Position numbers and translations under genes: made by a program | The notes under the pieces: generated by a model | Seen by the model: the letters and a program-made list of their open reading frames with translations, nothing else | What the model was told of the DNA's origin: nothing | The model's database searches: none | Source of the DNA: Candidatus Heimdallarchaeota archaeon | Lineage (GTDB): Archaea > Asgardarchaeota > Wukongarchaeia > Wukongarchaeales > JBHIFL01 | Direction: 5' to 3' | Length of the DNA: 64,000 nucleotides | NCBI GenBank assembly: GCA_046761065.1 | Contig: JBHIFL010000007.1 | Coordinates: 1 to 64,000, forward strand | Shown here: positions 2,185 to 46,191 of the stretch, in pieces | How positions within the stretch are numbered: position 1 is the stretch's first letter | Layout of the letters: every line of letters starts with the position of its first letter

Positions 2185-2219
2185 AACAGCCGCTTAACAC
2201 ACCATTTTCACTGATTTCA

Positions 2220-5132: not shown

Positions 5133-5137
5133 TTATA

Positions 5138-5851
5138 ATGGTGACGTTTGAAAATTATCGATTTGATCCGGAAACCGATCAGGCTCCCCGATTTGATAAA
5201 TTTCAACTCAAACCTCGAAAAGCAATGAATGTGCTAGAAGCCCTTTTTGAAATCGTAGATACACAGGATGGCTCTCTTGCCTTCCGATATGCCTGCCGTG
5301 GCGCGATTTGCGGTTCTTGCGGAATGATAATTAACGGGGAACCGCGTTTAGCATGTCAAACATTGGTTGAACGCCTAGAGACTGATATCATCAAGTTGGA
5401 ACCATTACCTCATTTGAAAGTCCTCAAAGATCTTGTAGTGGATCTAAACCCATTGTTCGAAAAGTTGAGCGTTGTTATGCCATTTTTTAAATCGGATCAA
5501 TTGGTAAAGCAGGATCGAGAGAGCTCACAGAGTCCTAAACAGCGTATTATGATCGATGATGCCGTTAACTGTATCCTTTGTGAACTCTGTGATGCTGCGT
5601 GTCCAATCGTGAATTTTAACAAAGACTTCCTAGGCCCTGCATCTATCGCAAAAGCGTATCGGTTCATCTTCGACTCTCGCGACGGAGCTATCATAGGACG
5701 GCTTAAGAAGGTGAATACGGAACAGGGAGTTTGGGGATGTCGTGTTATCGCGCGATGCACGGAAGTTTGTCCGAAAGATGTTGGTCCCAGTCGTTGTATC
5801 AGCGCAATCAAGAAAAAACTAGTGATAATCCATGTAAAAAACAAGGACTAG
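5138..5851 (+). CDS. sdhB: Succinate dehydrogenase/fumarate reductase Fe-S subunit
   Basis: CRGAICGSC..C (2Fe-2S), CILCELCDAACP and CRVIARCTEVCP cluster motifs; starts 5 nt after sdhA. Confidence 0.95.
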   Translation: MVTFENYRFDPETDQAPRFDKFQLKPRKAMNVLEALFEIVDTQDGSLAFRYACRGAICGSCGMIINGEPRLACQTLVERLETDIIKLEPLPHLKVLKDLVVDLNPLFEKLSVVMPFFKSDQLVKQDRESSQSPKQRIMIDDAVNCILCELCDAACPIVNFNKDFLGPASIAKAYRFIFDSRDGAIIGRLKKVNTEQGVWGCRVIARCTEVCPKDVGPSRCISAIKKKLVIIHVKNKD

Positions 5852-6216
5852 ACTCATTACCCACTCTAAAAGGGAGGGATAATTGTGTTTTGCCTATACA
5901 AGATGATGAATCGGCTACATTTTTCATATATAAAGTATAACAATCACACCGTAACAACAATTTACCAAAAACATTTAACAAAAGGAACCTGATCGACTTT
6001 TTCGAATCTAAGAAAATAATAATCAAGATTGATTATTTACTGACTTGGATTCGTTCCCCTTTCTCAAAAATATTGAGGCTCAAATGAGTTTACACAATTG
6101 ATGGTTTGATAAAGAGAAAACCAAGCTGACAAATCTTTGACCCGTTTTGAACGAAATGGTTTTAAATAATCGGAAGAGCGGAGTTGTTAATTTCTTCAGT
6201 TTGATGATTTTGATTA

Positions 6217-6966
6217 ATGGTGAAATATACTATGGATGATGAAGCACGAATACCTGCATGGAAGGGGAAAGGAGCAATACTCCTCTGGGTCATTATCTTT
6301 GTAATTACCCTATTTGGATTTAGCTTACTTCAAACCTATTTTAAGAATGCTTTAGGAATTCCCCAGGGCATCTGGTTGGGTATAATTATCACAGAGATGA
6401 GTATCGCACTGATTTGTTTGTTCTTCGCGCTAGTTTCCCGCAAAAGTTCGCTTGAAGAGCTCGGTATCAAACGTCCCCCAATGAAATGGCTTGTACTCGC
6501 AGTAATCTTGGCGCCAGTAATTCTTGTGATTACTGGCTTTGTGATCACCATTCAAACTGCTCTGACAGGCGAAATCCCCGCCGAAATACAAGAAGAGTAT
6601 ATACGTTTGTTGATGCCAACTTCAGCGACTACTCTAATAGTCTGGATCTTGATCTATTTATTGTTTGTTGGACCTGCTGAAGAGCTGTTTGCGCGAGGTA
6701 TTGTCCAAAAAGGGCTTCAAAACTCTTTTCGGGCAAAAAGTCTACCAATTCTGCTCAGTGGCCTGTTGTTTGGGGTGTGGCACATCGATCCGTATCGTAT
6801 TGCCGGCGTCACTGCGGGAGGGATCTGTTTTGCTTACATATACTACAAATCTGGAAATAACTTAATTGTTGTTGCATTGCTTCATGGAATGTATGATGCC
6901 TTTTCTATAACAATAGCCTTTATCGCGCAGCAATATCTCCCGACTGGAGGAATTCCACTAATCTAG
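6217..6966 (+). CDS. CPBP (CAAX/Abi) intramembrane glutamic endopeptidase
   Basis: Multi-TM protein with AEELFARG, FGVWH and HGMYD motifs. Confidence 0.9.
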   Translation: MVKYTMDDEARIPAWKGKGAILLWVIIFVITLFGFSLLQTYFKNALGIPQGIWLGIIITEMSIALICLFFALVSRKSSLEELGIKRPPMKWLVLAVILAPVILVITGFVITIQTALTGEIPAEIQEEYIRLLMPTSATTLIVWILIYLLFVGPAEELFARGIVQKGLQNSFRAKSLPILLSGLLFGVWHIDPYRIAGVTAGGICFAYIYYKSGNNLIVVALLHGMYDAFSITIAFIAQQYLPTGGIPLI

Positions 6967-7201
6967 AAAATTCTCGAAATGGAGACTATCTAATTAACTT
7001 GTACATTTGTTACTTTTCTTATCTTTATGTAAATAATCCTCATCATATCTATCTTTCCTACTGATGTAGGAAGTCGTTCTAGAGGAGAATAGCCCGGATA
7101 ATTGCCATTTCTGTCATTATGAGTAAAAACAACGATTTTTTAGAGGTTCAATATTTATTACAAAGATAGATTTCTGCATCACTGCTAGGTTAGGAACACG
7201 A

Positions 7202-8443
7202 TTGAAGTACGAAGCAATTCGAGCAAAATCGCCCATCTTAAACAAGTATCCTAATCCTGATAGCTGGTTTTGGGTTGAAGCCTCGACAAACCCTTACAGA
7301 GGATGCCAACATAATTGTGCGTATTGTGATGGGAAAGCTGAATATTATCGGATTGATAACTTTGCAAGCCATATCAGAGTAAAAACTAACGCACCTCAAC
7401 TCCTCACAAAGGAACTTACAAACCTCGGCTTTCATGAGATATTTCGGCCCGGTCGAAAATCTCTCCTTGACTACCTTCCAGAAGAGGTGCAGGAAAGGAA
7501 AACTTCGGAGGGATTAAATGGAAAAAACCAACGTAAATTTCTTATCGCAGTTGGGGGAGGGGTTTGCGATGTCTATCAACCTGCGGAAGCGGAATTTAAG
7601 GTAACACGAGGCTTGTTAAAAGTTTGTCGTGATTTTGGGTTTCCGGTTTCCATGTTAACCAAAAATGTCCTTATTCTTCGCGACCTTGATCTCTTGAAAG
7701 AGATTAATGATATTTCCTATGCGAATGTGTCCTTTTCGATCACATTAGCAGATGAAAAGATTAGAAAAATCTTTGAACCGGGGAGTTCTCCGTCGATTGA
7801 CCGATTTGCTGCCTTACAAAAAGTCAGACGCGTAGGATTACCTGGAGGAGTAATGTTCATGCCTATCCTTCCAGGAATTGGGGACACAGAGGAGAATATG
7901 CGTGCCATCATCAGTCGCGCAAAAGAGGTGGGGACAGAGTTTGTGTTACCTGCGGGACTGACCTTAAAGCCGGGTCGAAATAAAGATGCATTTTTACAAG
8001 TAATTGCAGAGCACTTTCCCGAGAAGTTACCACTTTACAAGGATATCTTCCGTCACAATAACAAATATGGGAAAGGGGACGCCTCAAAATGTAAAAACGT
8101 AGCCAGGATAGGACATGAGCTGTGCAAAGAATTTGGCCTTCCGGATAGAATCCCCCGCTACCTTGGTAACGCTCGAACATTTCTAGGTGTCCAGAATAAC
8201 TTACGTGTTTCAGAGGTGCTTCATGAAATTGCCTATTTAATCCAATTTGTCCATGGGCAAGGGTGGAAGATCGCCCAGCCTTACACAAAAGCCGCGCACG
8301 CTGTGGAAGCCTGTGCCCAAGATGTTGGGGCATTATCTGTTGAGGAGATCAAGCGAATTCGAGGAGTAGGAGCAACAATTGCGAAACTAGTTCGAGAGAT
8401 CTTAGATACGGGGACATGCGAGTTGAGGGAACAGCTGTATTGA
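7202..8443 (+). CDS. SPL-like radical SAM protein with C-terminal PolX-type 8-kDa helix-hairpin-helix domain
   Basis: NPYRGCQHNCAYC, DVYQPAE, LTKN..ILRDLDLL, FEPG, PILPG. C-terminal PYTKAA...IRGVGATIAKLVREILDTG matches the PolX N-terminal domain. Confidence 0.85.
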   Translation: MKYEAIRAKSPILNKYPNPDSWFWVEASTNPYRGCQHNCAYCDGKAEYYRIDNFASHIRVKTNAPQLLTKELTNLGFHEIFRPGRKSLLDYLPEEVQERKTSEGLNGKNQRKFLIAVGGGVCDVYQPAEAEFKVTRGLLKVCRDFGFPVSMLTKNVLILRDLDLLKEINDISYANVSFSITLADEKIRKIFEPGSSPSIDRFAALQKVRRVGLPGGVMFMPILPGIGDTEENMRAIISRAKEVGTEFVLPAGLTLKPGRNKDAFLQVIAEHFPEKLPLYKDIFRHNNKYGKGDASKCKNVARIGHELCKEFGLPDRIPRYLGNARTFLGVQNNLRVSEVLHEIAYLIQFVHGQGWKIAQPYTKAAHAVEACAQDVGALSVEEIKRIRGVGATIAKLVREILDTGTCELREQLY

Positions 8444-8645
8444 TAGAGCCCATACAAACCAATTGGTCTTGACTCTTACCTTATTAGATTACATGAGTCT
8501 ATGCATTAATCTCTGTAGGGCTTTAGAGACTTCAAAGTGATTTAAATATAAGTGAATATCCTTAAAGCAGTAAGTTATAGGTAGCCTGTTCAGAGATTAG
8601 TTGTTAATTTCAATCCTCCCAAAATAGTAATCGGAGGGTAACCAC

Positions 8646-9851
8646 ATGACAAGGCCGGAACTGCCATCTGTGGAAGAATATGAAGCGCGTGCAAAACAGT
8701 TGCAAGCAACTATGAAAGAAACCGAACTCGATGGAGCACTCCTTTTCCAGCGTGTGGATGTGTTGTATTTCAGTGGCACCGGGCAGAATGCCGCGTTGTT
8801 TATCCCCTCCACCGGGACCCCCTTATTGATGGTGCGGCAAAGTTACGAACGAGTCCAAAAGGAACGTGTCGCTGGACGAATCACTCGATTTCGTCGGATT
8901 CGGGACCTCTCACGTATTTTAAAGGATTTTGGAATTTGCGATTTAGCTCGAGTTGGTCTAGAACTCGATGTTCTTCCAGTCCTTGAGTATCAGAAGTTGA
9001 AACGCTCTCTTGACGTCCGTGAATTCCTGAATATTTCCCCTTTGGTGCTAAATCTCCGCATGATCAAAAGCCCAACAGAGGTGAAATTAATGAAGCAAGC
9101 TGCGAGGGTGGTCAAAATGGGGCATGAGCGGGCAAGAGAGATTCTAGAAACCGATGGTGTGGGTATTCGAGAAATCGAACTTGCTGCGGAAGTTGAAGCC
9201 GCCATGCGTCGGGAAGGGCATGATGGGCTGATCCATCTGCGTCGCTGGAATCAGGAAAATTTTTATGGGCATATTCTTTCTGGCCCAAACGGTGCCCTAC
9301 CAAGCTATGTCGCTTCACCCACAGGCGGTCAGGGAACTAGCATTGCCGTCCCTCAAGGCGCCGGAAATCGGAAAATTCAGAGGAATGAGCCGATTTTGGT
9401 CGATATTGTAGGTGCATATCAAGGTTACTACACCGATGCTTCACGGACCTATGTTATTGGGCAGCTGCACAACTCGCTACTTAATGCCTATCAACTCACA
9501 TTACAAATCTTAAAACAAGCTATCAAGCATATCCGTATTGGAACTCTATCAAGGGAGGTCTATCAGTTAGCTTTAACTATGGCAAGGGAGGGTGGTTATG
9601 AACAGGGGTTTATGGGCTGTACCAACGATCGAGCCCCTTTCTTAGGACATGGAATCGGGATGGAACTTGATGAACTGCCTGTTTTGTCGAAAAGGAGTGA
9701 TACCCGACTTCAGAAGAACATGACTCTCGCAATCGAACCAAAAATCGCGATTCCGAAAGTCGGGGTTGTCGGGGTAGAAGATGCATACCAGTTAACAGAT
9801 ACGGGCTTGAAATCATTGACGCAATGGGAGAATTTTCTTGATATTGTTTGA
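8646..9851 (+). CDS. Xaa-Pro aminopeptidase/prolidase family (M24) peptidase
   Basis: Creatinase_N-like N-terminus, LRMIKSPTE, metal ligands VD..YYTDASRT, GHGIGMELDE, AIEP, VED. Confidence 0.92.
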   Translation: MTRPELPSVEEYEARAKQLQATMKETELDGALLFQRVDVLYFSGTGQNAALFIPSTGTPLLMVRQSYERVQKERVAGRITRFRRIRDLSRILKDFGICDLARVGLELDVLPVLEYQKLKRSLDVREFLNISPLVLNLRMIKSPTEVKLMKQAARVVKMGHERAREILETDGVGIREIELAAEVEAAMRREGHDGLIHLRRWNQENFYGHILSGPNGALPSYVASPTGGQGTSIAVPQGAGNRKIQRNEPILVDIVGAYQGYYTDASRTYVIGQLHNSLLNAYQLTLQILKQAIKHIRIGTLSREVYQLALTMAREGGYEQGFMGCTNDRAPFLGHGIGMELDELPVLSKRSDTRLQKNMTLAIEPKIAIPKVGVVGVEDAYQLTDTGLKSLTQWENFLDIV

Positions 9852-9876
9852 TATGAACTGTCACTTCGAATGCATA

Positions 9877-11337
9877 TTATTGTAAACGAATACCTATAAT
9901 TTCCTCTGGCAACGCAAATTCTGGTGTCTCTGTAATACCCTCTGTATCAAGAAGCTCCTCTGCCAACTCTTCTAACAATTCTTCTCGTTGTTTTTCCGTG
10001 ATTTTCAACATAAATTTTCGAATTTTCAGATGAAACGCTTCGAGTTCAATTTCAGTGAGATCGGTTAGATTTTTCCATGAGCATGTAGCATTTGCTAGAA
10101 ACTCCTCGATTTCAAGGAACTTTTGAAGCATGAATGCCATAATTTGCTTACGCATCACCAATAAGAACAGAATCACTGTTGTTTGAAGACGAGAATCTTG
10201 CTGGATTTCTTCTGGGTACCCTTTAATCGTACGATAAAACCCTAAACATAAAAAATCACTGCCTGGAATCTCAATTGTTCCCGCATATTGTGTGAGTTTC
10301 TGGTCACGATAATTGATACCAGACATCAAGACGGTGAAACCGCGATATGTGAGATTAAACACTTCTCCTTCGTTTAATAGAGATTTATTAAAAATCGTTG
10401 TCGGTCCTGCGGCTCCTGCATAGGTCGCCACCAAACCGATCTCACCTGCCAACTTCTCATCCAGTAGTTTCCGTAACTCCAAATATTCTTTCGTTCGCAC
10501 AAGTGTATTATGAAGCGTTGCGACTTGTTTCCGCTCAGAAATGTCACGTGTAATGCCTAAAATTCCAAACGGCTGGCCATCGTCCCGGAGAAAAGTCATT
10601 TTAACCTCGGTCCAGATAGTGGAACCATCCTTCCGGTATTGTTCTAACTCTAGCGTTCGTGTTCTCGATATGTCCTTTTGTTTCATGTTTTCTATAGCCA
10701 TTTCTTCTGCAAACGCTTTCTTGGCAATCTTAAGAGATGTTGGAGTCAGAATGTCTTCCAATCTTTGGGCCATGGCTTCTTCCACACTGTACCCACGTAA
10801 CCGTGTGACAGTGGGGCTAATATAGGTATATTGTAAGTTTAAGTCCATAGTCCAGATAATATCGGTCACATTTTCAACAAGAAGTCGGTAGCGAGTCTCA
10901 CTCTCCTGCAATGCTTCCTCCGCCTGTTTATGTTTAGTTATATCATCTATGACCCAGATCAGGCCTGTCACTTTCTCCTCTTCAATTAACGGATGAATTT
11001 CTGTTTCAAAGTACCTCTTCGCCCCTGGCGGGATTTCATACTTGTGATCGAAGGCGCAGGAGCTCCGACTTTCGAGTACCGCTGCCGCTTTTTCTCGAAG
11101 CTCAGCTTCTGATGGAAATCTAAGGATAGTGAATAGGTCTCTTCCTATAATGTCATCTTCCACGATCTTGAAGAGTTTTCGGACGGCTCTATTATAACTG
11201 ATAATGATGTATCGCGTATCAGTGATGATGATGGCATCCGTGATGCTATCTAAGATGGCAGTGTTTAATGATGACAACTGGATTAGTCTTTCTTTGGCTT
11301 CCTCAAACAAATTCTTGTACATATCTCCTGAAATCAT
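9877..11337 (-). CDS. Double PAS domain protein with non-kinase C-terminal domain
   Basis: PAS1 (ILDSITDAIIITD..DDITKHK) and PAS2 (ESETRYRLLVEN..RKDGSTIW..RDISERK). No HisKA/HATPase motifs; acidic tail. Confidence 0.85.
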   Translation of the reverse strand: MISGDMYKNLFEEAKERLIQLSSLNTAILDSITDAIIITDTRYIIISYNRAVRKLFKIVEDDIIGRDLFTILRFPSEAELREKAAAVLESRSSCAFDHKYEIPPGAKRYFETEIHPLIEEEKVTGLIWVIDDITKHKQAEEALQESETRYRLLVENVTDIIWTMDLNLQYTYISPTVTRLRGYSVEEAMAQRLEDILTPTSLKIAKKAFAEEMAIENMKQKDISRTRTLELEQYRKDGSTIWTEVKMTFLRDDGQPFGILGITRDISERKQVATLHNTLVRTKEYLELRKLLDEKLAGEIGLVATYAGAAGPTTIFNKSLLNEGEVFNLTYRGFTVLMSGINYRDQKLTQYAGTIEIPGSDFLCLGFYRTIKGYPEEIQQDSRLQTTVILFLLVMRKQIMAFMLQKFLEIEEFLANATCSWKNLTDLTEIELEAFHLKIRKFMLKITEKQREELLEELAEELLDTEGITETPEFALPEEIIGIRLQ

Positions 11338-11674
11338 TAGATTTTCCTCACCTGCAAGATTCTAGAAACTTATATCCAACCTATCACTTTTCTTTTTAGA
11401 TCATTATATTCTGATAAATTATTCAGCCGAATAAGCACTCATAATTTATGGTTCCCAGATATTTGGTGGTTTTGTCAAAATTGTGCGACAAAAACTGTGC
11501 AATATACATTATGACCCAAATAATCAGGTATCAAAATTTCATTTGCCAACGATGTAAGTTCAACCAATCAGCTAAACAAGTATCTCATATAAACGATTTG
11601 AACCAAAAGAAGGTAAGTGATGAAACCCGATAATAAACAATAAACGATTTGATCCGCCTTATGTAAGGTTGGAG

Positions 11675-13015
11675 ATGTACATGTTACCAGATGACGACAA
11701 TATAAGAAAAGAAGCCACAACAATATTACGTGATCTGATCCAAATAAATACTACGAATCCCCCTGGCAATGAAACTAAAGCAGCTCAATATTTATTTGAT
11801 TTTTTTTCTCAAGAAGATTTCGAACCCGAAATTTTGGAATCTGCTGAAGAACGCGGAAACCTTCTTGTGCGGCTTCCTGGTGAGGACAGTCAATCTCTTC
11901 TCTTCCTCAGCCATCTGGATGTAGTTCCAGCTAGCCTGGAAGGCTGGGATCTTGACCCTTGGAAGGGAGAAATAAAAGACGGGTTCATTTATGGGCGAGG
12001 TGCACTGGATTGTAAGAGCTTAGTCGCAATCGAAGCGTTAACCCTTGTACTTTTAAAACGGGAAGGTTTCCGTCCGAAAGGCGATCTCATCTTCGCCGCC
12101 GTGGCAGATGAAGAGAAAGGTGGAAAATTAGGGGCAGGATGGCTCGTTAAAAATCATCCAGATAAGGTTCGAGCCGCATTTGTGATCAACGAGGGGGGTG
12201 GGATTGGCGTCCCTATGAAAGGAACGAATAAATACCTAATTCAAGTGGCAGAAAAGGGCGTTTATTGGACCAAAATCCGAACAAAAGGAACTCCGGGCCA
12301 TGCCTCCATGCCAACAGTCGGGGAAAATGCATTACTCGCGATGGCGGCAGTGGTTGAAAAATTAGGTAAGCACCGGACTGCTATTGAAATTCAGGAGGTC
12401 GTGAGAGAGATGATTTTCAAATTAGCTGGAAAAGGATTGGGAAGCCGATTACTTTTAATGCCTTTTTTGACTGATCGCCTGTTGAATCGCCTAAAAACGA
12501 CCAAGCCGGAAATGTCTGAACTATTCCGTGCCCTCGTAAGAATTACTATTGCCCCAACAATGTTTCACGCTGGTGTGAAAGAGAATATCATCCCTGATAC
12601 GGCGGAGGCTATTCTCGACTGCAGACTGCTTCCAGGTCAAGACTTTGAGGACCTTAAGGCTGAATTCGTGAAAGCCCTAGGTGACCTGTCCCAACTTGAA
12701 ATTGAACTTATCACACAGGACCCAGGGACGGTTTCCCCACACGACTCCGAGCTTTTCGCCGCGATCGAGCGGCAAATCGCAGCTGCCGATCCAAGCGCAA
12801 CTTGTGTGCCCTTTATGGTTAGTGGGGGGACAGACAGTAGATTCTTCCGGAAAGCCTTTGGGTCGGTGGCCTACGGTTTCCAACCCGTACAACCGGATAT
12901 CCCTTTGTCCGAGCTTATCAAGTTGGCTCATGGACGAAATGAACGAATCAGCCAAGAGAACCTAGTTTTCGGTACGAAAATTTTGTATCACCTGACGAAA
13001 GACCTCCTATCGTGA
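11675..13015 (+). CDS. M20/M25/M40 family metallopeptidase (ArgE/DapE/Acy1-like)
   Basis: TTNPPGNE, SHLDVVP, GRGALDCK, ADEEKGG, NEGG, GHAS, GGTDSR, HGRNERI. ATG at 11675 or 11681. Confidence 0.93.
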   Translation: MYMLPDDDNIRKEATTILRDLIQINTTNPPGNETKAAQYLFDFFSQEDFEPEILESAEERGNLLVRLPGEDSQSLLFLSHLDVVPASLEGWDLDPWKGEIKDGFIYGRGALDCKSLVAIEALTLVLLKREGFRPKGDLIFAAVADEEKGGKLGAGWLVKNHPDKVRAAFVINEGGGIGVPMKGTNKYLIQVAEKGVYWTKIRTKGTPGHASMPTVGENALLAMAAVVEKLGKHRTAIEIQEVVREMIFKLAGKGLGSRLLLMPFLTDRLLNRLKTTKPEMSELFRALVRITIAPTMFHAGVKENIIPDTAEAILDCRLLPGQDFEDLKAEFVKALGDLSQLEIELITQDPGTVSPHDSELFAAIERQIAAADPSATCVPFMVSGGTDSRFFRKAFGSVAYGFQPVQPDIPLSELIKLAHGRNERISQENLVFGTKILYHLTKDLLS

Positions 13016-13074
13016 TGTTATCCTCTGGACTACGTCCTCGAAGGGAAAGAAAAAAGGGGAATTGACCTCCGGCC

Positions 13075-14727
13075 TCAGATGTACTTGAGCAGTGAATCCG
13101 GATGGCTCTTCTTAAGCTTTTCATACCAGTTACATAATCGCCAGAGGATAACTAGTCCGACAACCCAGAAGATCGCAGTCCCCATCAAATTCATCTGGAA
13201 GGTAGTCGGCCGGTTGAACCAGCCAACCCAGAGCCTGTAGAGCCAGATATGTATGCAATAGAAGAAAAGAGGAACCTTCCCGAAGGTGAGGGTGACTCCT
13301 GTGATGCCCCAAGTGAAGTCGGAGCGGTTCTGGAGGATTAGGCCGAGGGCAAGGAAGAAACACATGCCCCCGAGGGTCCATAACAGGAAAGTGATACTAG
13401 GTGGGTATTTTGCCATGAACAACCAGTCCTGAATCGTGTTATCTGTGTTTCCTAGCCGTGGAAGTCTATTCCCATAACCATTTAATAATCGCGTTACAAA
13501 CCAGAGCACTAGAGCGGCTCCTCCGATAGTTGAAATGGGAAGGATCAACCGCTTGATTTGTTCTTTATCGTATGAGGTAAGAAAGATGCCAAAACACCAA
13601 CCAAGCCCCATTACACCTATCCATGGGATGAGTGGATATAGGCCAACATACGGCCACAATTCGAAGTTTGGTTGGTAGAGAATAACCTTGAGGTACCAGC
13701 GAAATTCTGTACTGAGTCTTGTTGGTAAAAGCCAGTTAAGGTCGATGAATGGTTGGCTTATGATGATTAAAATGGAGAACACTAAGATAGCAATGGGAGG
13801 GATGCGGCGGAGGACGCTGAATATGATGAGGGAGATGCCGATACAGGCAAGGACCCCGAAATACAAGTACGGAGTGACGAGGTTGGGAGGCAGGTTATAG
13901 AAGAAGGCGGGGGCGATAACAAAAGCCTCTAGTAAGAGGAGCACCATGCCTCGTTTGACTATCCGAAGGGTGATGTCCCTCTGGGACTCGCCTTGGGCAA
14001 GCCTTCTAACCGTGGAGAGAGCTAATGCGGTTCCTGCAAGGAAGATGAAGGTTGGTGCGCACCAATGTGTAATGAACCGGAGGAGAAACTGGGTGAAATC
14101 GGGAAATTCAGGCCGGTATAATGTTGCGACTCCATTTGGAAACGTCAACAAGCCCTCACTCCCCCGGCGTCCGGGGTTCCAGAAAACGGAAACGTGATCC
14201 CATGCCATGAAAATCATGACGATACCGCGGGCAAAATCGATGAAGGGAAGCCGAGCCTGCGCAGGGTTCTGCATTGAGTTCTGATCGGGTTTGCCGATGG
14301 CTTTGACATTAAAAATTGCTTTGACATGGGACCTGGTTAGATAGAAGATTATTACAATGTAGTTAGCGATATAGGTAATTATAATCAAGATTGCTCCTAA
14401 GAAGCTATCCTCGACTGTTAAATCCAATAATTCGATAATTAGCACTGGGATATTGATCCATAACACAATGATGCCGATTAATGCCAGAATTATGCACAGC
14501 CACCACGCCCAGTTCCTTCTCATCCATAATCCATACGTAAGGAGAAAGCTCCCCACCACGGAGGCAGGAATGATGAGTTGAGTAAAAATTACATTTACAA
14601 AAGAATCCCATGATTGGATCATTACTAATAATAATATTAGAAGCGTCAAAATCCCTGTGAGAAGGTTGTACCCCACTAGGAGAGTTAACCCCAGAGGTCT
14701 TGCTTGTTTTTCTGAAATAATATTCAT
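13075..14727 (-). CDS. DUF1624 (HGSNAT-like acyltransferase) membrane protein with extra N-terminal multi-TM module
   Basis: RLPFIDFARGIVMIFMAWDH, RFITHWCAPTFIFLAG, YPLIPWIGVM, KYPPS, GKVPLFFY..H. The first ~140 aa form a separate hydrophobic module. Confidence 0.8.
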   Translation of the reverse strand: MNIISEKQARPLGLTLLVGYNLLTGILTLLILLLVMIQSWDSFVNVIFTQLIIPASVVGSFLLTYGLWMRRNWAWWLCIILALIGIIVLWINIPVLIIELLDLTVEDSFLGAILIIITYIANYIVIIFYLTRSHVKAIFNVKAIGKPDQNSMQNPAQARLPFIDFARGIVMIFMAWDHVSVFWNPGRRGSEGLLTFPNGVATLYRPEFPDFTQFLLRFITHWCAPTFIFLAGTALALSTVRRLAQGESQRDITLRIVKRGMVLLLLEAFVIAPAFFYNLPPNLVTPYLYFGVLACIGISLIIFSVLRRIPPIAILVFSILIIISQPFIDLNWLLPTRLSTEFRWYLKVILYQPNFELWPYVGLYPLIPWIGVMGLGWCFGIFLTSYDKEQIKRLILPISTIGGAALVLWFVTRLLNGYGNRLPRLGNTDNTIQDWLFMAKYPPSITFLLWTLGGMCFFLALGLILQNRSDFTWGITGVTLTFGKVPLFFYCIHIWLYRLWVGWFNRPTTFQMNLMGTAIFWVVGLVILWRLCNWYEKLKKSHPDSLLKYI

Positions 14728-39417: not shown

Positions 39418-39662
39418 TGTGACTACACCAAATCAGATCTGATCACTTAATTAGATTCAAAAAGAATTGTTTTATCTTTTTGGTATGACTAGTTAAATCA
39501 TATTTTCATAATTTTGCTAGAAACAGCATGCACTTCATGAATCCTATTCAATGGAAACACATTTGTGGCATCGGAAAGCATTTTTTATGAGATCTCATTG
39601 GGTGATTTCAACCAATGCCCAATTAAACTGTTCTTGAGCCTACATATGTGAGGCATTCTACC

Positions 39663-40589
39663 ATGTTCTTATTTGAGAAAGAACAAAAGATTGTGAAAAT
39701 AGCAGGCATCTCTTTGGGAGGCCAACCCGGAGAATACCCCACAGTCCTCATTGGAAGTCTCTTCTATCAAGGACATAAAATCGTGCAAGATTTTAAGAAA
39801 GGTATTTTCGATAAGGCCGCAACAGAAACGTTGCTCAATCAACAAGATAGCCTTTCAGCGAAGACCGGGAACCCATGTTTTGTCGACATCATCGGTGAAA
39901 CTTCCGAAGCCTTGATAACCTTCATTGATTTTGTGGCAGACACTACGGACGCCCCTTTTCTTATAGATAGCACTCGAGCTGAGATCAGGCTCCCTGCAGC
40001 ACATCATGCCGTCGAGATTGGTGTAGGGGATCGAGCTATTTACAACTCCCTCGAATATAGCTCCGGGGATGATGAACTCACGCAACTGAAAGAGATTGGT
40101 TTAAAGAATGCTATTCTACTTGCCTATAATCCAACGAATGTTCGGGAGACTGGACCGTTAGAGATAGTGAAGGGAACTTCCACTCAACAGGGCCTTCTTC
40201 AAAAGAGTCGGGAAGCCCAAATTGAGAATATTCTTGTCGATGCGGCGGTCTTGGACGTCCCAAGCATCGGCCTTTCGGCAAAAGCTATTTACCTAATAAA
40301 ATCTCAATTGGGCTTGCCTTGTGGTTGTGGTCCTTCGAATGCCATCGCCACATGGAAGAAGTTACGAACCACATTTAGTTATGATGCCTATACTGCTTGC
40401 GCGGCAGCTTCAGGGACCGTTCCTGTTACAATGGGGGGGGATTTCATCCTCTATGGTCCAATGGTCTTCGCAGAGCGGGTTTTTCCTGTTTATGCCATGA
40501 TTGATTCGATTATTGCGTATCATGCCCGCCGATTGGGTGTCCATACCAAAACAAAAGCCCACCCGCTATACATGATCTTTCGGGATTAA
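39663..40589 (+). CDS. mtrH: Tetrahydromethanopterin S-methyltransferase subunit H family
   Basis: MFLFEKEQK..GGQPGEYPTVLIGSLFY.GHKIV.D, PFLIDS, IYNS, GCGPSNA..W, GGDFILYGP, HPL. ATG at 39663. Confidence 0.95.
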   Translation: MFLFEKEQKIVKIAGISLGGQPGEYPTVLIGSLFYQGHKIVQDFKKGIFDKAATETLLNQQDSLSAKTGNPCFVDIIGETSEALITFIDFVADTTDAPFLIDSTRAEIRLPAAHHAVEIGVGDRAIYNSLEYSSGDDELTQLKEIGLKNAILLAYNPTNVRETGPLEIVKGTSTQQGLLQKSREAQIENILVDAAVLDVPSIGLSAKAIYLIKSQLGLPCGCGPSNAIATWKKLRTTFSYDAYTACAAASGTVPVTMGGDFILYGPMVFAERVFPVYAMIDSIIAYHARRLGVHTKTKAHPLYMIFRD

Positions 40590-40807: not shown

Positions 40808-41209
40808 TTACCAGAGTTCGATACGTAGTCCTGGAATTCTCCTAAAGTGCTTTTCGTTTCTCGTTACAAGTGTATATTCACTAACTATTGTGATTCCAGC
40901 TATTATTGCATCCCTTAAATCAATGGGTGTTCCTCTATGAAGGAGTTCAGAGAGGATTTCACCGGATCTTCTCGAGCTTTCTAAGGTGAAATCAAGGAGA
41001 TTATTTGAATTAAGTAAGTTTTCAGCTTCCTTAACATTCTGTGCAGTCTTTTCCGATCTAAAGGCGCCTAGGCAGATCTCAAAGGCATTCATTGGTGTGG
41101 TTGTGACTTGCACCCCGATTGAATCGTATTCCTCAGCCCTCTTGATAGCTTCTAGATGATTTCTCAAGATTGCTACTAGAAAGTCAGTGTCCAAGCAAAT
41201 TCTTTTCAT
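40808..41209 (-). CDS. vapC: VapC/PIN toxin
   Basis: ICLDTDFLV, NAFE, DLRDAIIAG, LVTRNEKHFRRIPGL. Start moved to ATG 41209 (SD GGAGG). Confidence 0.92.
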   Translation of the reverse strand: MKRICLDTDFLVAILRNHLEAIKRAEEYDSIGVQVTTTPMNAFEICLGAFRSEKTAQNVKEAENLLNSNNLLDFTLESSRRSGEILSELLHRGTPIDLRDAIIAGITIVSEYTLVTRNEKHFRRIPGLRIELW

Positions 41210-41432
41210 AATTCCTCCACAGCTCCGAAAGCTCACCAAAAATCTTCTTCTCTTCCTCGTCGCTCATTACCCAAGCTCCAGCAAAGCTCGCCAGCGGTTT
41301 CTTAGTAACTTTAGAACAAAGCCGAAGTACCACGTCTGTGAAGGATTCCCCTTCTTTTTTTAAGGACGCAAGCTTATTGTAGGCTTCATCAGATAGATTG
41401 ATCGTTTATACCCTATCCGCACCACTCTTCAT
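41184..41432 (-). pseudogene. vapB: VapB-type (DUF217-like) antitoxin interrupted by an in-frame TAA
   Basis: Manual translation MKSGADRV*TINLSDEAYNKLASLKKEGESFTDVVLRL...FAGAW..SDEEEKKIF..; TAA at 41406-41408; overlaps the vapC start. Missed by the ORF track. Confidence 0.85.
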
Positions 41433-41591
41433 AAAATGAATGGGCTCTCGATTTATTCTGTATTACTATCACATACAGACGATTCTCCTGAGAGGAATTA
41501 TTGCACACGCCAAAGTTGAGACGCATTCACCCTAAGATCTTTCGGGAATGATCAGCTCTTGGTCTTTTCAAAAAGCACTGTCATTTGAACG

Positions 41592-42827
41592 CTACATCCG
41601 TAGCCCACCATCGATTTGGACTGTAACTCCCGTCATGTAATCGGAATCATTGGATGCTAAAAATACTGTCGCCTTGGCTACGTCCTGTGGCAACCCAGTT
41701 CGCATTAATGGGATTTGAGCAATGGTCTGTTCTTTGTAGACAAGTGGCGTATCTGCTGTCATAGCTGTTTCAATAAACCCGGGCATAATCACATTCACAT
41801 TGACTTTGTATCGAGCCAGTTCTCTCGCTGCCGTTTTTGTCAGGGCCACGATTCCCCATTTGGAGGCATTATACGCCGCTTGGCCCACATTACCATATTT
41901 TGCGCTCGTACTTGTAAAATTGATGATTTTTCCTCCAAGTGGTCGTTTCTCCATAAAATGAGGTATAACCGCCCGAATTGTGTTGAAAGTCCCCTTAAGG
42001 TTGATATTAATGACAGAATTCCAGAGGTCATCAGTCATCTTAGCAAGGAGCGAACTTCTCGAAATCCCGGCATTGTTGACCAGGATATCAATCTTCCCAA
42101 ATTGGTCTAAGGTTCCCTTCACTAGGTTTTCCACATGTTTCACCTTAGCGACATCACAAGGGATCGCAAGGGCTTCGCTCCCCAATTCTTGAATTTCACC
42201 CGCCACTGCCTCAATATCTGATATCGTTCGAGCCGCCACCACAACCTTAGCCCCTTCTCGCGCAAATTCCAAGGCAATCTCACGTCCTATCCCTTTCCCT
42301 GCGCCTGTCACGATTGCAACCTTTCCGGCGAGTTTTTTTGCTCGGATTTCGGGTTCTTTAGGTTGCGTGATCGTATCCAAAGGGCTCTCTGCTGCACTAC
42401 CTCTAAGCAGCTTATAGACCACTCGATCGCCTTCAATAACTTCAGGAATGACCCTTACAGGTTCTCCGATCTTAAGGTCTTCTGGATCATCACCCACCCA
42501 AGTTAACAACCGCCCTCCATAAGCACCTGTCCGGTCCTTTAAGTTGACTACACAAACTGTATAAGGCGTATATCGCTCAAATCCTGCAGGTGGGATATGT
42601 ACTTCGGAGAAAGATAAAATCGTACCTTCACCTGACAGTTCTTCCCATTCAATATGCTCATCTGTTAGACATTTTGCAGTACAATACGCCCGTGGCGGAA
42701 AGTAGAGAGTGTTGCATCGAGTGCAACGCGTCCCTTTTAGTTTTCTTTCTTTCAAAGCTTCTAAAAATCGGTTACCAACTTTTGATTGAGCTAAAGAAGT
42801 GTATGTGACATATCCAAATTGCGACAT
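41592..42827 (-). CDS. DUF35 (Zn-ribbon/OB-fold) fused to FabG-like SDR ketoacyl reductase
   Basis: N-terminal CTRC..FPPRAYCTAKC and EGTILSFS..PY.V..V.L; C-terminal TGAGKGIG, NNAGI, YNASK, PGFIETAMT, YMTG..IDGG. ATG 42827 after SD GAGGTGA. Confidence 0.9.
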   Translation of the reverse strand: MSQFGYVTYTSLAQSKVGNRFLEALKERKLKGTRCTRCNTLYFPPRAYCTAKCLTDEHIEWEELSGEGTILSFSEVHIPPAGFERYTPYTVCVVNLKDRTGAYGGRLLTWVGDDPEDLKIGEPVRVIPEVIEGDRVVYKLLRGSAAESPLDTITQPKEPEIRAKKLAGKVAIVTGAGKGIGREIALEFAREGAKVVVAARTISDIEAVAGEIQELGSEALAIPCDVAKVKHVENLVKGTLDQFGKIDILVNNAGISRSSLLAKMTDDLWNSVININLKGTFNTIRAVIPHFMEKRPLGGKIINFTSTSAKYGNVGQAAYNASKWGIVALTKTAARELARYKVNVNVIMPGFIETAMTADTPLVYKEQTIAQIPLMRTGLPQDVAKATVFLASNDSDYMTGVTVQIDGGLRM

Positions 42828-42831
42828 TTTC

Positions 42832-43980
42832 TCACCTCTGGAAGATATGCACGACACAATATTGCCCATGCCCTCCCACGTTGTGTGTTAGCCCAATTTC
42901 TGCTCCATCAACTTGTCGCTTCCCGGCTTCTCCTCGGAGCTGTTTAACAATTTCGACGATTTGCGAACACCCCGTGGCCCCCACCGGATGGCCTTTTGCC
43001 TTAAGTCCCCCATCAACATTCACTGGAATTTTGCCCCCAATGTAGGTTTGCCCTTCTTCCGCTAAGGCACCTCCCTTTCCACGCTCGGTGAAACCTAGAT
43101 CCTCATATGCCATAATTTCTGCAATAGTAAAGCAATCATGAACTTCTGCTACGTCAATATCGTCTGGACCAACCTTTGCTTGAGCATAAGCATTTTTTGA
43201 GGCTTCCACAGCACTAGGCAATGTTGTCAGATCCGGTCTGACTAGTATAGAGAACGGGGCTGATGCAGCCCCTAACCCTTTAATCCAAATCGGTGTATCT
43301 GACAGTTGCTTTGCTTTCTCTTCGTTGGCCACAATAAGGGCTGCAGCCCCATCTGCGTTAGCACAGCAATCAAACAGATGTAAAGGCGAAGCAATAATCC
43401 GAGAGTCTAAAACTTGTTGAATAGAGATTTCTTTTTGGAACATTGCCAAGGGATTCATGGTGCCGTAATAGTGGTTCTTAACTGCGACTGTGGCAAGCTG
43501 TTCTGAAGTTGTCCCGTATCGGGTCATGTGCTGGCGTGCGTAAAGGGCGTAATAATTAGCAAAAGTAGTGCCGTAGGGAGCTTCCCACTGGACGTCTCCA
43601 CTACGCCCCATTATTTTTAAAATTTCGGCAGTATTCTGTTCCAGCATTTTTTGTATGCCTAACACCAAAACAAGGTCGTGCATGCCCGATGCGATCTGTG
43701 CATAGGCAGTCCGGAGTGCTACAGCTGATGATGAACACGCTGCTTCAGTTAACCAAACTGGTTGCGGGTTTAAGCCAAGATACTCGGTAATAGGTCCAGC
43801 TATACTCCGCTGGATCATGTAAACTGGCGATGCTCCGATTATGGTGGCTTCAATATCTTCACGCCCGATCCCTGCATCAGTGAGGGCTTCTACAAAGGGT
43901 TCAAATGCAAGTTCTTGAACGGATACATCGTCCCGTCTTCCAAATTTACCGTGTCCGATTCCAATAATGCCAACTTTCAT
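42832..43980 (-). CDS. Archaeal/SCP2-type acetyl-CoA C-acyltransferase (thiolase)
   Basis: EAACSSS (catalytic Cys), KNH, DGAAALI, AEVHDCFT, GHPVGATG, HNVGG. Confidence 0.93.
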   Translation of the reverse strand: MKVGIIGIGHGKFGRRDDVSVQELAFEPFVEALTDAGIGREDIEATIIGASPVYMIQRSIAGPITEYLGLNPQPVWLTEAACSSSAVALRTAYAQIASGMHDLVLVLGIQKMLEQNTAEILKIMGRSGDVQWEAPYGTTFANYYALYARQHMTRYGTTSEQLATVAVKNHYYGTMNPLAMFQKEISIQQVLDSRIIASPLHLFDCCANADGAAALIVANEEKAKQLSDTPIWIKGLGAASAPFSILVRPDLTTLPSAVEASKNAYAQAKVGPDDIDVAEVHDCFTIAEIMAYEDLGFTERGKGGALAEEGQTYIGGKIPVNVDGGLKAKGHPVGATGCSQIVEIVKQLRGEAGKRQVDGAEIGLTHNVGGHGQYCVVHIFQR

Positions 43981-44304
43981 ACTATGTCATCTCCTTTAGC
44001 CATAGTTCAGGTGGTATTTGGAAGAATGATGAATACCACCGTTCGAGCAAGGAGGTGAAATCTTGTTCGAAGCGATTTGATCATCTAAATATCCACGAGG
44101 TGTCTTTTGAGGATACTTAAGGGATAGAACCCCTCGGGATAATTAAATGACTTTATGGGTTGGATAAAAATTACAAGTATTAGTTTACAGTGGTGAGTGT
44201 CAGCATGCATCCAAAATCAGATTCTTTTTTGTTTTCGGTGAAGCTGAAGCTACTTTCAGTCGTTTCCTATCACTATTTCTTAATGCCAGAAAAGTTTTCT
44301 TGAG

Positions 44305-45015
44305 TTAAAAGATATTTAAATTTTTTAAGGTTTGGATGCAAGCTGTCCGAGCAAGGGGGACTAGCACGCCTCTGAGTGTGTGCATGTGTGTTTGACCCCA
44401 TGTAGTCTGTTTTGATAACGCATCCCGCACACAGTCATAGTGATGAATCCAAGTATTGGAGGGAGGGTGTCCGCTAATTGTTGCAAGTGTATCGATAACT
44501 GCTTTGTAGGATTTCAACGCATCTTCAGCATAATCCCAATGGTAATCGTTGGCATATTGCCACGCATTCCCGATGGAAAGCCATCCCTCTATGGTGTGAT
44601 TTAAAATTCGTATAAATTCGTTCTTAAGCTTATCAAACTTACTGGGAATAATTGGGGTGTCGTTCATAATTTCAGGACTCTGGAGTACACTATGAATAGT
44701 TGTGAACGCAAATTTCACCAATTCTGATCGAATTATGTCGAAGTGTTCGGGAGGAATCTTTTTTTCGGAGATGGCCAGAAAGATAAGTTTATAGAATTCC
44801 TTCCAATATGGCGGTGGGCCCTGGTTGCCTGTCATGATGAGATCTATCACCTTATCATCTGCAAGGTCAAGAAAGTATTCGGCAGCGCCCCAATCATGTT
44901 TTTTTGCTCTACTTCTTATACACTTGATATAACGGATTCCCTCACAGACTGTTTCAATGATAAAGTCAATCTCATCTTTTAAGGTCTCTAATTTTTCGGA
45001 TTTAATTATTTGCAC
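44305..45015 (-). CDS. Hypothetical helical protein made of two ~120-aa internal repeats
   Basis: GTG start with SD AGGAG; both halves share LK.E...I.....EG...I..A..W..AE..L..P..W...Y..A.S..H..R..LV..A.T. Confidence 0.7.
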   Translation of the reverse strand: MQIIKSEKLETLKDEIDFIIETVCEGIRYIKCIRSRAKKHDWGAAEYFLDLADDKVIDLIMTGNQGPPPYWKEFYKLIFLAISEKKIPPEHFDIIRSELVKFAFTTIHSVLQSPEIMNDTPIIPSKFDKLKNEFIRILNHTIEGWLSIGNAWQYANDYHWDYAEDALKSYKAVIDTLATISGHPPSNTWIHHYDCVRDALSKQTTWGQTHMHTLRGVLVPLARTACIQTLKNLNIF

Positions 45016-45573
45016 GAATGTATCTCCTATAATAGCTAGTTATGAATTCTTCTTGATAGGAAGTAATAAACTCTATGGTACTTATTATTGTATTAAGCGA
45101 GATTATGCATTCTGACAGTAGAATGAATATACATCAGTTTATTTGACATAAACAGCGATGAAAAGATTGGGAAGTCTAACGCTAAAGCTTTTTGAAGAAC
45201 ACTTAAAACATGAAATTTAATCACGATTTTGAATGTTTTAACAAGTTTGTATCCCGCTTCTGTTTACATTATTTGTCGAAGCAAAATTTATGTACTCTTT
45301 CAATTTCTGGGTGGACACCCCCAATAATACAGTTTTTTTAGGAACAGAGGGGAGATCCCCATCAAACAGATTCTAGATAATAAGTAAGCTCCAATGTCGA
45401 GAACAGAGTTGCTACCACTTCAATTGACATAGTTAACACAGATTCTTCGATCGATTCCTTCACCCTATGAGAAATCCTTTTTTGATCAAACCTTTAAAAT
45501 AAGAGCCTTATTTTTTATATATATTCAGTTGTATTTTATTTAAGCCTTTATATTATAACTAAATTAAGATTTT

Positions 45574-45646
45574 TTAGTGTAGACCTCTACAGTATTCTAG
45601 ATTTTAGTGTAGACCTTTACAGTAATTAGTGTAGACCTCTACAGTA
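45574..45646. repeat. Three 21-bp direct repeats TTAGTGTAGACCT(C/T)TACAGTA, each internally palindromic
   Basis: Copies start at 45574, 45604 and 45626; core TGTAGA-CC-TCTACA; TATA-like TTTATA at 45547-45552. Confidence 0.92.
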
Positions 45647-45824
45647 TTGTAAATTTGCCAAAAGACTAAAATACCCGTGCTGCGTGATTTTTTTTACCAT
45701 CAACTCAACTAAACTATAACGCAGTTTCATTCCTCGCCCGTTCGCGAACTCCTTTTCGGGGAGTTTTTGTGAAGTGTAATTGGAGGAAATAAAATGTTGT
45801 GGTTCTATCTAGGAGCAGATAAAA

Positions 45825-46034
45825 ATGGTGATTGGGGACTCGACTGATAGCCCTCCGACTTGGGCTAGGGGAAATATTACTCGCTATATAACCAAACGGT
45901 GGAAGACACTGGGAGGGGTGATAGGAAGTCATGGAGTGTTTGGGGCTTTATTTGGCTTGATCTACGGTGGTGAGGTGGGGGAACTGCTGTGTGGCGCTCC
46001 ACTCGCCTATTTAGGAATCACGGTTTTTAATTAA
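45825..46034 (+). CDS. Possible small Gly-rich hydrophobic protein
   Basis: 69-aa ORF with AGGAG upstream and GxxxG-rich C-half; no recognised family. Confidence 0.3.
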   Translation: MVIGDSTDSPPTWARGNITRYITKRWKTLGGVIGSHGVFGALFGLIYGGEVGELLCGAPLAYLGITVFN

Positions 46035-46191
46035 ATGGGTTAAGCATGTTTCATATATGTTTTGATGCAACAAGACGAGAGAATTATTTACACTGTGAAC
46101 AGTTTTATAAACCATTAATCTAAAAGGAAATAATCTCTTAATTTAGAGACAAGAACTCCTCCGCTCCTAAATGTCAATAAAGTGATGATTT

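Follow-up and report, generated by a model that had tools for sequence, protein, structure and literature searches.

We found that a thiolase gene and the DUF35::SDR fusion gene directly downstream of it probably encode a 3-hydroxypimelyl-CoA dehydrogenase tethered to a 3-oxopimelyl-CoA thiolase of the lower benzoyl-CoA pathway. Both genes lie in the window, the whole stretch of 64,000 nucleotides of Candidatus Heimdallarchaeota DNA that was analyzed. The fusion is a new variant on the already known DUF35-thiolase scaffolding. The features of the pair are listed here in the direction of reading.

43981-44304, minus strand: upstream intergenic region, 324 nt, with AAAGGAG before the thiolase ATG
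42832-43980, minus strand: thiolase gene (P0001), 382 aa, archaeal SCP2-type
42828-42831, minus strand: spacer GAAA, 4 nt, from the thiolase TGA to the fusion ATG, read from the sequence
41592-42827, minus strand: DUF35::SDR fusion gene (P0003), 411 aa plus stop
42657-42761, minus strand: zinc-ribbon of DUF35 (zf-ChsH2), residues 23-57, Pfam 5e-10
42450-42647, minus strand: OB-fold of DUF35 (OB_ChsH2_C), residues 61-126, Pfam 4e-16; 6ESQ chain E, E = 8e-14
42333-42401, minus strand: variable interdomain linker, about residues 143-165, non-conserved in the alignment
41595-42332, minus strand: FabG-like classical SDR domain, residues 166-411, adh_short at 169-359, 1.7e-62

The thiolase ORF (43980..42832, minus strand) closes with TGA at 42834-42832, and the start codon of the fusion is the ATG at 42827. 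Thus, as an initial annotation of this DNA had stated, the thiolase stop lies 4 nt before the DUF35-SDR gene. The sequence GGTGA just 5' of the spacer overlaps the thiolase stop and is likely the ribosome-binding site of the fusion gene. The longest ORF of the fusion has 425 aa, starts at 42869 and overlaps the thiolase. We preferred the ATG at 42827, which is the start in all relatives and in a database protein of 411 aa (P0003) with the identical sequence. The 324-nt intergenic region is presumably the seat of a putative operon promoter. In this genome the pair is flanked by a PIN toxin gene and an unannotated ORF and is otherwise isolated. Full-length homologues of the fusion (55-86% identity) occur on many independent contigs, so the fusion is not an assembly artefact.

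The thiolase matches Thiolase_C_1 (2.3e-49) and Thiolase_N (7.4e-16) in Pfam and PRK06064 in NCBIfam with 506 bits (cutoff 420). Its C82, HDCF motif (residues 281-284) and H331 are invariant in the alignment of relatives, and its closest solved structures are 7YVY and the thiolase of 6ESQ/6ET9. In the fusion, the zf-ChsH2 and OB_ChsH2_C matches both exceed their cutoffs. C35, C38 and C49 of the zinc-ribbon are invariant; the fourth Cys varies among relatives. The interdomain linker is predicted to be flexible, with AF2 pLDDT below 50 at residues 151-161 in a monomer model of only moderate overall confidence (pLDDT 73). The Pfam domains agree with the earlier description of a DUF35 N-terminus followed by a complete FabG-like SDR, which begins near nt 42332.

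The SDR domain carries TGAGKGIG (174-181), A199-R200-T201 and the catalytic residues N276, S306, Y319 and K323, and this tetrad is invariant across the aligned fusions. K178 and A199-R200-T201, which had been read as suggesting NADPH preference, are indeed present as an NADP-type signature and invariant across 33 aligned fusions. The domain is nearest to biosynthetic FabG and groups with bacterial FabG in the tree. It scores below cutoff against the FabG equivalog models TIGR01830 (265.4, cutoff 297.75) and NF004198 (274.6, cutoff 296). As the genome has no ACP / PP-binding match either, an ACP-dependent FabG role was dropped.

The complex of thiolase and fusion was predicted with an ipSAE of 0.81 (0.81-0.82 in three runs), compared with 0.00 for the best control; this mark is attained by 58/80 solved complexes and 2/110 mismatched pairs. 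At least 96% of the contacts recur from run to run, with a partner pLDDT of 87 or more. Confident contacts are confined to fusion residues 4-137 and thiolase residues 118-154, 194-199 and 245-251. The predicted thiolase-binding surface is mostly OB-fold, plus the N-terminal residues 4-15 of the fusion, and many predicted contact residues are invariant alignment columns. The DUF35 part alone docks; there is no SDR-thiolase contact in the predicted complex. The score may partly reflect model memory, since DUF35-thiolase complexes have already been solved (6ET9, 7PXP, 6OK1). The prediction, a check that the initial annotation had itself suggested, thus supports binding of the thiolase by the DUF35 domain but does not show it.

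In our model the two genes would form a hard-wired two-enzyme module, the N-terminal DUF35 of the fusion clamping the thiolase. A flexible linker of ~25 residues would keep the NADP-type SDR (3-hydroxyacyl-CoA dehydrogenase / 3-ketoacyl-CoA reductase) beside the thiolase, and the 3-ketoacyl-CoA would pass between the two active sites without build-up. The substrates would be those of the lower benzoyl-CoA (alicyclic) pathway, in which Oah ring opening gives 3-hydroxypimelyl-CoA. The SDR would oxidize this to 3-oxopimelyl-CoA, which the thiolase would split into glutaryl-CoA and acetyl-CoA. For Hermodarchaeota, a Bcr/Dch/Had/Oah pathway has been put forward (PMC8163825), and Geobacter metallireducens has a benzoate-induced ech-thiolase-SDR cluster (PMC1924859).

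We tie the module to Oah on three grounds: its phyletic pattern, the genes around it in relatives, and the unfused triads seen in other phyla. In a phylum sample of 301 genomes (this genome, the 21 genomes of family f21 and 279 others), the fusion is present in this genome, in 14/21 f21 genomes and in 0/279 others. Oah above the curated cutoff is likewise found in this genome and f21 and in 0/279 others; 15/21 f21 genomes have Oah matches, 14 of them above cutoff. The two patterns are nearly identical. None of 14 control genomes matched Oah. The co-occurrence spans just two related lineages, which counts against the benzoyl-CoA reading.

In relatives the genes are also close together. At locus L031, 358 nt separate the thiolase-fusion pair from an upstream Oah (579.6 bits, cutoff 464); at L039 Oah is directly downstream, and in five f21 genomes it is 0.1-2.5 kb downstream. 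Ahead of the thiolase, 13/14 f21 genomes and also L001, L002 and L029 have a Had-like MDR and a Dch-like ECH. This MDR has catalytic zinc ligands and an NAD-type Asp, and its best matches are alcohol dehydrogenases and Had.

Orthologous thiolases (60-69% identity) were found in Thermoplasmata, Archaeoglobi and many bacterial phyla (loci L042-L116). Unfused SDR-KT-DUF35 triads are present in 64/75 of these non-Asgard loci. Oah is present in 23/75, and in 17/38 of those loci that are flanked on each side by 5 kb or more. Like the pair described here, these Oah/BamA-linked triads have the orthologous thiolase, a DUF35 directly downstream and an NADP-type SDR in the operon, and Oah and a Dch-like hydratase are their frequent neighbors. 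Unlike the fused domain, their SDR is encoded separately, upstream of the thiolase, and belongs to a different SDR clade (100/100 support). We suggest that the thiolase and DUF35 of the pair came from this widespread triad, and that in this Asgard clade the SDR of the triad would have been swapped for a FabG-like SDR fused behind DUF35.

This genome, which is 91.5% complete, has its own Oah (TIGR03200, 522.8 bits, cutoff 464; C83:4683-5843) and a Had-like MDR (278.7 bits) away from the pair. The MDR orthologue on contig C23 has the same zinc ligands and NAD-type Asp as that of the relatives. Matches to the Had model TIGR03201 (220-279 bits, cutoff 339) and the Dch model TIGR03189 (185-197 bits, cutoff 292) are both sub-cutoff, and no benzoyl-CoA reductase (class I Bcr or class II BamB) in this genome reaches a curated cutoff. 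The class I Bcr candidates, also sub-cutoff, resemble 2-hydroxyacyl-CoA dehydratase and its activase. An AOR gene adjoining Oah was rejected as BamB: Pyrococcus AOR is the closer match, with 377 bits against 209 bits for BamB.

Both Oah and the Had-like MDR lie on contigs other than that of the pair, which counts against the benzoyl-CoA reading. The sub-cutoff Had and Dch matches, the missing benzoyl-CoA reductase and the missing SDR-thiolase contact in the predicted complex count against it too. The separation of the pair from Oah would fit a unit for the general beta-oxidation or fermentation of short or dicarboxylic acyl-CoAs (e.g. in amino-acid or fatty-acid breakdown) without a special alicyclic tie, Oah being just a frequent neighbor in acyl-CoA gene islands. 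The loci of relatives also carry ACAD and ETF, HCDH, a CoA transferase and an ordinary thiolase near the pair, and an unfused KT-DUF35-SDR set at L026 adjoins a 2-hydroxyacyl-CoA dehydratase-family gene. However, Oah is a narrow marker, missing from all of the control genomes and other genomes above, yet it recurs beside this thiolase family in many phyla. Moreover, a standard, NAD-type HCDH-ECH-KT-DUF35 beta-oxidation cluster is already present on contig C18. We regard a general unit as quite unlikely.

The initial annotation had tentatively assigned the pair to ACP-independent fatty-acid or hydroxybutyrate synthesis. It had mentioned non-fused thiolase/reductase/DUF35 assemblies proposed in Sulfolobales, and one such assembly does exist in Sulfolobus: the 'archaeal fatty acid synthase' of Sulfolobus acidocaldarius comprises KT Saci_1121, DUF35 Saci_1120, SDR reductase Saci_1104 and MaoC Saci_1085 (bioRxiv 10.1101/2024.07.05.601840). 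There the KT/DUF35 binds a FabG-like, NADPH-/(R)-specific reductase, and the cascade yields hexanoyl-CoA (same reference). By analogy with that KT/DUF35/ACR set, our pair would start an ACP-independent, CoA-based synthesis of fatty acids or 3-hydroxyacyl-CoA by catalyzing its first two steps, with the fused NADPH reductase pulling the endergonic Claisen condensation. As in S. acidocaldarius, a thiolase/DUF35 is combined with a FabG-like NADP-type SDR, which here would act on the 3-ketoacyl-CoA of the thiolase, on CoA and not ACP. The invariant NADP signature of the fused SDR, its grouping with bacterial FabG and the genome without detected ACP agree with synthesis, as does the separate cluster on C18, since Sulfolobus also keeps distinct sets for fatty-acid synthesis and degradation. 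An NADP-type, FabG-nearest SDR would suit a reductive role, which counts against the benzoyl-CoA reading.

However, the NADP motif does not decide the direction, because the SDRs of Oah-linked triads are also NADP-type. The distribution of the fusion matches that of Oah and is not broad, and the best 80 loci closest to the thiolase include no Sulfolobales thiolase. An archaeal FAS of the S. acidocaldarius type is defined as KT/DUF35 + ACR + MaoC-HCD + MDR-ECR. In this genome, at the completeness given above, MaoC, FabA/Z and FAS1-DH (PF01575, PF07977, PF13452) had no match and class III PHA synthase was not found; PHB/hydroxybutyrate synthesis was dropped on the latter ground. The f21 relatives do carry MaoC, unlinked to the pair. 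The MDR neighbor was considered as the enoyl-CoA reductase of a four-step FAS operon, but its zinc-ADH/Had-like features and NAD-type Asp do not support this and appear unlike those of an NADPH enoyl reductase. Unlike S. acidocaldarius, where the proteins are separate, DUF35 and SDR form one chain here, no MaoC partner was found in the genome, and the context points to catabolism of a ring-derived C7 dicarboxyl-CoA. We consider fatty-acid or 3-hydroxyacyl-CoA synthesis by the pair unlikely. The architecture, the predicted docking, the NADP signature and the lack of both an adjacent HMG-CoA synthase and an ACP stand from the earlier interpretation; its proposed purpose is not favored.

It is similarly doubtful that the module is condensing/reductive in vivo in any form, be it the start of ACP-free elongation in Asgard archaea or a reverse benzoyl-CoA route, with the fused NADPH reductase pulling the Claisen condensation. 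Such a reverse route operates in Syntrophus, where glutaryl-CoA and acetyl-CoA are converted via 3-hydroxypimelyl-CoA to alicyclic acids. If the reductive reading were true, the fusion would prove, in a naturally encoded form and in an Asgard archaeon, that DUF35 mediates 'pull' channelling.

A picture is emerging of DUF35 as a general clamp by which a thiolase-fold enzyme is joined to the next pathway enzyme; HMG-CoA synthase, steroid hydratases and the reductase and dehydratase of Sulfolobus are the coupled partners known so far. The best solved relatives of our pair are in the thiolase/HMG-CoA synthase/DUF35 complex of Methanothermococcus thermolithotrophicus (6ESQ, 6ET9; DUF35 E = 8e-14, thiolase E = 4e-77). 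There too a DUF35 clamp couples the thiolase to the next enzyme, but the partner is HMG-CoA synthase, held non-covalently, for mevalonate synthesis. No HMG-CoA synthase adjoins our pair, as had been noted earlier; the HMGCS-thiolase-DUF35 trio of this genome is on a separate contig (C1).

Covalent fusion of DUF35 to a pathway enzyme is also seen in the steroid side-chain MaoC-DUF35 proteins (ChsH2 with Ltp2, 6OK1; Shy with Sal, PMC11321319). Their DUF35 docks the fused enzyme onto a thiolase-fold partner that catalyzes the next step of CoA-ester degradation, and the same is predicted here. Unlike our fusion, these bacterial proteins have a hydratase as the fused enzyme and a C-terminal DUF35, and the partner is a thiolase-fold aldolase. 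In anaerobic aromatic catabolism, benzoylsuccinyl-CoA thiolase BbsAB (DUF35 BbsA, thiolase BbsB) acts right after the SDR dehydrogenase BbsCD (7PXP, 7PCS). BbsA, BbsB and BbsCD are detectable homologues of our DUF35, thiolase and SDR, but they are unfused, have other substrates and show far lower similarity (BbsA E = 1e-5).

That DUF35 and an SDR are fused in nature is genetic (Rosetta-stone) evidence, obtained independently, for an SDR as a true partner of a thiolase/DUF35 pair. With its thiolase, the fusion also makes a simpler system, of just two proteins, for structural and kinetic work on channelling. The two genes are also candidates for 3-hydroxypimelyl-CoA dehydrogenase and 3-oxopimelyl-CoA thiolase, whose steps in the anaerobic degradation of aromatics are poorly defined. 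Asgard thiolase/DUF35 pairs are no proof of fatty-acid synthesis unless their context is checked.

In a search for other DUF35-SDR fusions, a single cluster among the best 150 of 1.84 billion representatives matched over the full length. Of the remaining two-stretch matches in this set, those checked in Pfam were all double SDRs. One of the representatives, P0162, has an unassigned 170-aa N-terminus. The genes at L026, in the order KT, a 139-aa DUF35 and an SDR with a 4-nt overlap, and those at L025 were considered as direct ancestors of the fusion. This was dropped because their DUF35s (35-40% identity) are no closer than the C18 paralogue (34%), and we take them as examples of unfused linkage only. 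The L026 SDR joins the fusion clade weakly, on a long branch (86/63). Public databases name proteins such as the fusion 'FabG' or 'glucose 1-dehydrogenase'.

The thiolase and fusion genes lie on the minus strand of the window, arranged as follows.

43980..42832, minus strand: thiolase ORF of 382 aa, TGA stop at 42834-42832
42831-42828, minus strand: spacer GAAA, read from the sequence
42827..41592, minus strand: DUF35-SDR fusion gene, 411 aa

The initial annotation had described a thiolase stop 4 nt before a gene joining DUF35 to a FabG-like SDR with motifs of NADPH preference, and this observation was confirmed in every detail. GAAA separates the TGA from the ATG at 42827. A 425-aa ORF overlapping the thiolase is possible from an upstream ATG; however, the ATG at 42827 is where an identical database protein of 411 aa and every homologue start. 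Pfam found Thiolase_C_1 and Thiolase_N in the thiolase, and zf-ChsH2 (residues 23-57), OB_ChsH2_C (61-126) and adh_short (169-359) in the fusion. NCBIfam assigned the thiolase to PRK06064 with a score over the cutoff, and the SDR part scored slightly under the FabG equivalog cutoffs.

We aligned 33 fusion sequences. All 33 retain the basic residue in TGAG[KR]GIG, and both A199-R200-T201 and the catalytic residues N276, S306, Y319 and K323 are invariant. Residues ~143-165 are variable, with AF2 pLDDT below 50. The DUF35 OB domain of this genome has a 5-residue insertion (window 42510-42530, minus strand, residues ~100-106) that none of the 32 aligned homologues has; the sequence is KDRTGAYGG here and KE-----GG in the others.

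In SDRs, NAD use is usually marked by an acidic residue where beta-2 ends, and NADP use by basic ones. By this rule, the basic residues at that position predict that the fused SDR is of the NADP(H) type. In 4NBU, its nearest single-domain relative with a solved structure, the cofactor-specificity position is occupied by Asp.

The named homologues belong to Asgard archaea, namely Hodarchaeota/Hodarchaeales, Kariarchaeaceae, "Heimdallarchaeota" and "Hermodarchaeota", and also include some MAGs carrying Thor or Odin labels. When the DUF35 part alone was the query of a word-based search among proteins of 226-720 aa, DUF35-SDR fusions of this kind were the sole matches. An exhaustive profile-free scan gave one full-length fusion cluster only among the best 150 of 1.84 billion cluster representatives. 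The remaining long matches were considered as further fusions; those checked in Pfam were double SDRs. Across 301 evenly sampled genomes of the phylum, the complete fusion occurs in the source genome, in 14 of the 21 members of one family (f21) and in none of the 279 others. Thiolase and fusion genes were adjacent in every case. No paper describing a DUF35-SDR fusion was found in our literature searches.

The complex of thiolase and whole fusion was predicted with an ipSAE of 0.81 (0.81-0.82 in three runs; best of three controls 0.00), contact agreement of at least 96% and partner pLDDT of at least 87. For comparison, 58 of 80 solved complexes reach this mark, against 2 of 110 mismatched pairs. 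The confident contacts of the model are confined to the DUF35 part (fusion residues 4-137) and, on the thiolase side, to residues 118-154, 194-199 and 245-251; the SDR domain has no reported contact with the thiolase. In the solved thiolase/HMGCS/DUF35 complex 6ESQ/6ET9, chain E is the best sequence match of the DUF35 part and chain A that of the thiolase, so the docking pass may be partly model memory. What the predicted complex shows is likeness to 6ESQ/6ET9, not a demonstration of binding. DUF35-mediated coupling of a thiolase to a pathway neighbour is a known principle, of which the DUF35-SDR fusion is a new form. In steroid degradation, MaoC-DUF35 fusions dock onto thiolase-fold aldolases (PMC11321319).

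An MDR gene precedes the thiolase in the f21 genomes and at the compared loci L001, L002 and L029, and a 255-aa crotonase is usually present too. The MDR protein carries the zinc ligands of both the catalytic and the structural site, and its NAD-specificity position is Asp; it scores 220-279 bits on the Had model TIGR03201, under the cutoff of 339. The model nearest to the crotonase is dienoyl-CoA hydratase (Dch), again under the cutoff. At another compared locus, L031, a 366-aa crotonase 358 nt upstream of the pair scored 579.6 bits (cutoff 464) on the model for Oah (BamA), the ring-opening hydrolase of the lower benzoyl-CoA pathway. At L029, from a Heimdall-type relative, a gelsolin-domain protein gene (7268-8146, minus strand; weak Pfam match) lies directly 3' of the fusion gene.

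Oah exceeded the cutoff in the source genome (contig C83, 522.8 bits) and in 13 of the 14 f21 genomes that carry the fusion; the copy in the 14th is truncated by a contig end (452 bits). In five f21 genomes, Oah is found downstream of the fusion, 0.1-2.5 kb away. Within the same 301 genomes, Oah is restricted to the source genome and 15 of the 21 f21 genomes; 14 control genomes had none. Fusion and Oah have one common phyletic pattern, which represents two related lineages only and not sixteen independent observations. For Hermodarchaeota, Zhang et al. (PMC8163825) put forward a Bcr/Dch/Had/Oah pathway, mentioning neither DUF35 nor a dedicated thiolase.

On C83 of the source genome (4683-12251), Oah stands beside an amidohydrolase, a 4Fe-4S protein, an AOR-family tungsten-type enzyme, an FAD/NAD oxidoreductase (best match PadH), a cupin and an enoyl-CoA hydratase. 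This AOR is nearer to Pyrococcus AOR than to BamB. Contig C23 (region 2000-13500, local 4532-9896) encodes a 2-hydroxyacyl-CoA dehydratase/BcrB-like protein (best match HadB, under cutoff) together with an activase over cutoff and an acyl-CoA ligase. These genes are ~10 kb from a Had-like MDR and adjoin a Liv-type ABC transporter, and the region may be an organic-acid catabolic island.

A pattern scan built on the thiolase alignment over ~185,000 species genomes returned the 80 closest loci, 5 Asgard, all of the fused form, and 75 non-Asgard, from Thermoplasmata, Archaeoglobi, Methanomassiliicoccales and more than a dozen bacterial phyla. An unfused SDR-thiolase-DUF35 triad was present in 64 of the 75. 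Oah homologues lie within 23 of the 75 loci, and within 17 of the 38 that have at least 5 kb on both flanks. The non-Asgard thiolases are 60-69% identical to the window thiolase; the source genome's own paralogues reach at most 53%. Conservation of the triad at this identity between Asgard archaea, Thermoplasmata, Archaeoglobi and over a dozen bacterial phyla is striking, and implies that a single specialised module has spread widely by horizontal transfer. An ech-thiolase-SDR cluster of Geobacter metallireducens (Gmet_2057-2059) shows 15-32 fold induction on benzoate (PMC1924859).

The triad SDRs group into a single clade (support 100/100) in a maximum-likelihood tree. The fused SDR domains (100/98) fall on the opposite side of that branch with bacterial FabG-like SDRs, so the fused SDR is not an orthologue of the triad SDR. 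In this Asgard clade the SDR has been exchanged and the new one joined to DUF35.

The best-supported reading is that the pair tethers a 3-hydroxyacyl-CoA dehydrogenase to a 3-ketoacyl-CoA thiolase. Thiolysis pulls the unfavourable oxidation of 3-hydroxyacyl-CoA by NAD(P)+, as it does in trifunctional beta-oxidation complexes; tethering is therefore sensible in the oxidative direction as well. This reading is weakened by the lack of linkage of the pair to Oah or the MDR in the source genome, by Had and Dch assignments both under cutoff, and by the failure to confirm any benzoyl-CoA reductase.

Fatty-acid synthesis by the pair would resemble the system that Schmerling et al. (bioRxiv 10.1101/2024.07.05.601840) showed in S. 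acidocaldarius, where the partners bound by KT/DUF35 (KT, thiolase) are a MaoC dehydratase and a FabG-like reductase that is NADPH-dependent and (R)-specific. The same study reported many KT/DUF35 pairs in Asgard genomes, with no mention of a fusion. The triad SDRs have a basic NYR[RK]HD after beta-2 and are thus likewise NADP-type, so the cofactor motif does not discriminate between catabolism and biosynthesis. The source genome (91.5% complete) yielded no ACP, MaoC, FabA/Z, FAS1-DH or class III PHA synthase, and we consider fatty-acid synthesis unlikely.

The source assembly (4.42 Mb, 234 contigs, 8.2% contamination) contains five DUF35 genes and six SCP2-type thiolases. Besides the pair, these include:

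contig C1: HMGCS-thiolase-DUF35 trio
contig C18: HCDH-ECH-thiolase-DUF35 cluster
elsewhere: two more thiolase/DUF35 pairs and one solitary thiolase

The C18 cluster (region 4000-14000, local 2050-6454) is a classical NAD-type 3HCDH-ECH-thiolase-DUF35 arrangement, and its KT/DUF35 pair is thereby associated with standard beta-oxidation enzymes. A generic beta-oxidation role for the fused pair itself seems improbable.

Other genes flank the pair in the window.

40808-41239, minus strand: PIN-domain (VapC-like) gene
about 41240-41400, minus strand: short ORF directly upstream of the PIN gene, product reading like a small antitoxin
44305-45015, minus strand: 236-aa ORF upstream of the thiolase, without Pfam match

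The PIN gene and short ORF (40808-41440), immediately downstream of the fusion gene, are probably a VapBC pair. Beyond the 236-aa ORF is a gene-poor stretch of about 1.2 kb (45016-46191). A stand-alone MtrH-like methyltransferase (39648-40589, plus strand; PF02007, 5.9e-96) has no other mtr genes near it, and this neighbour is also present in a close relative (L028).
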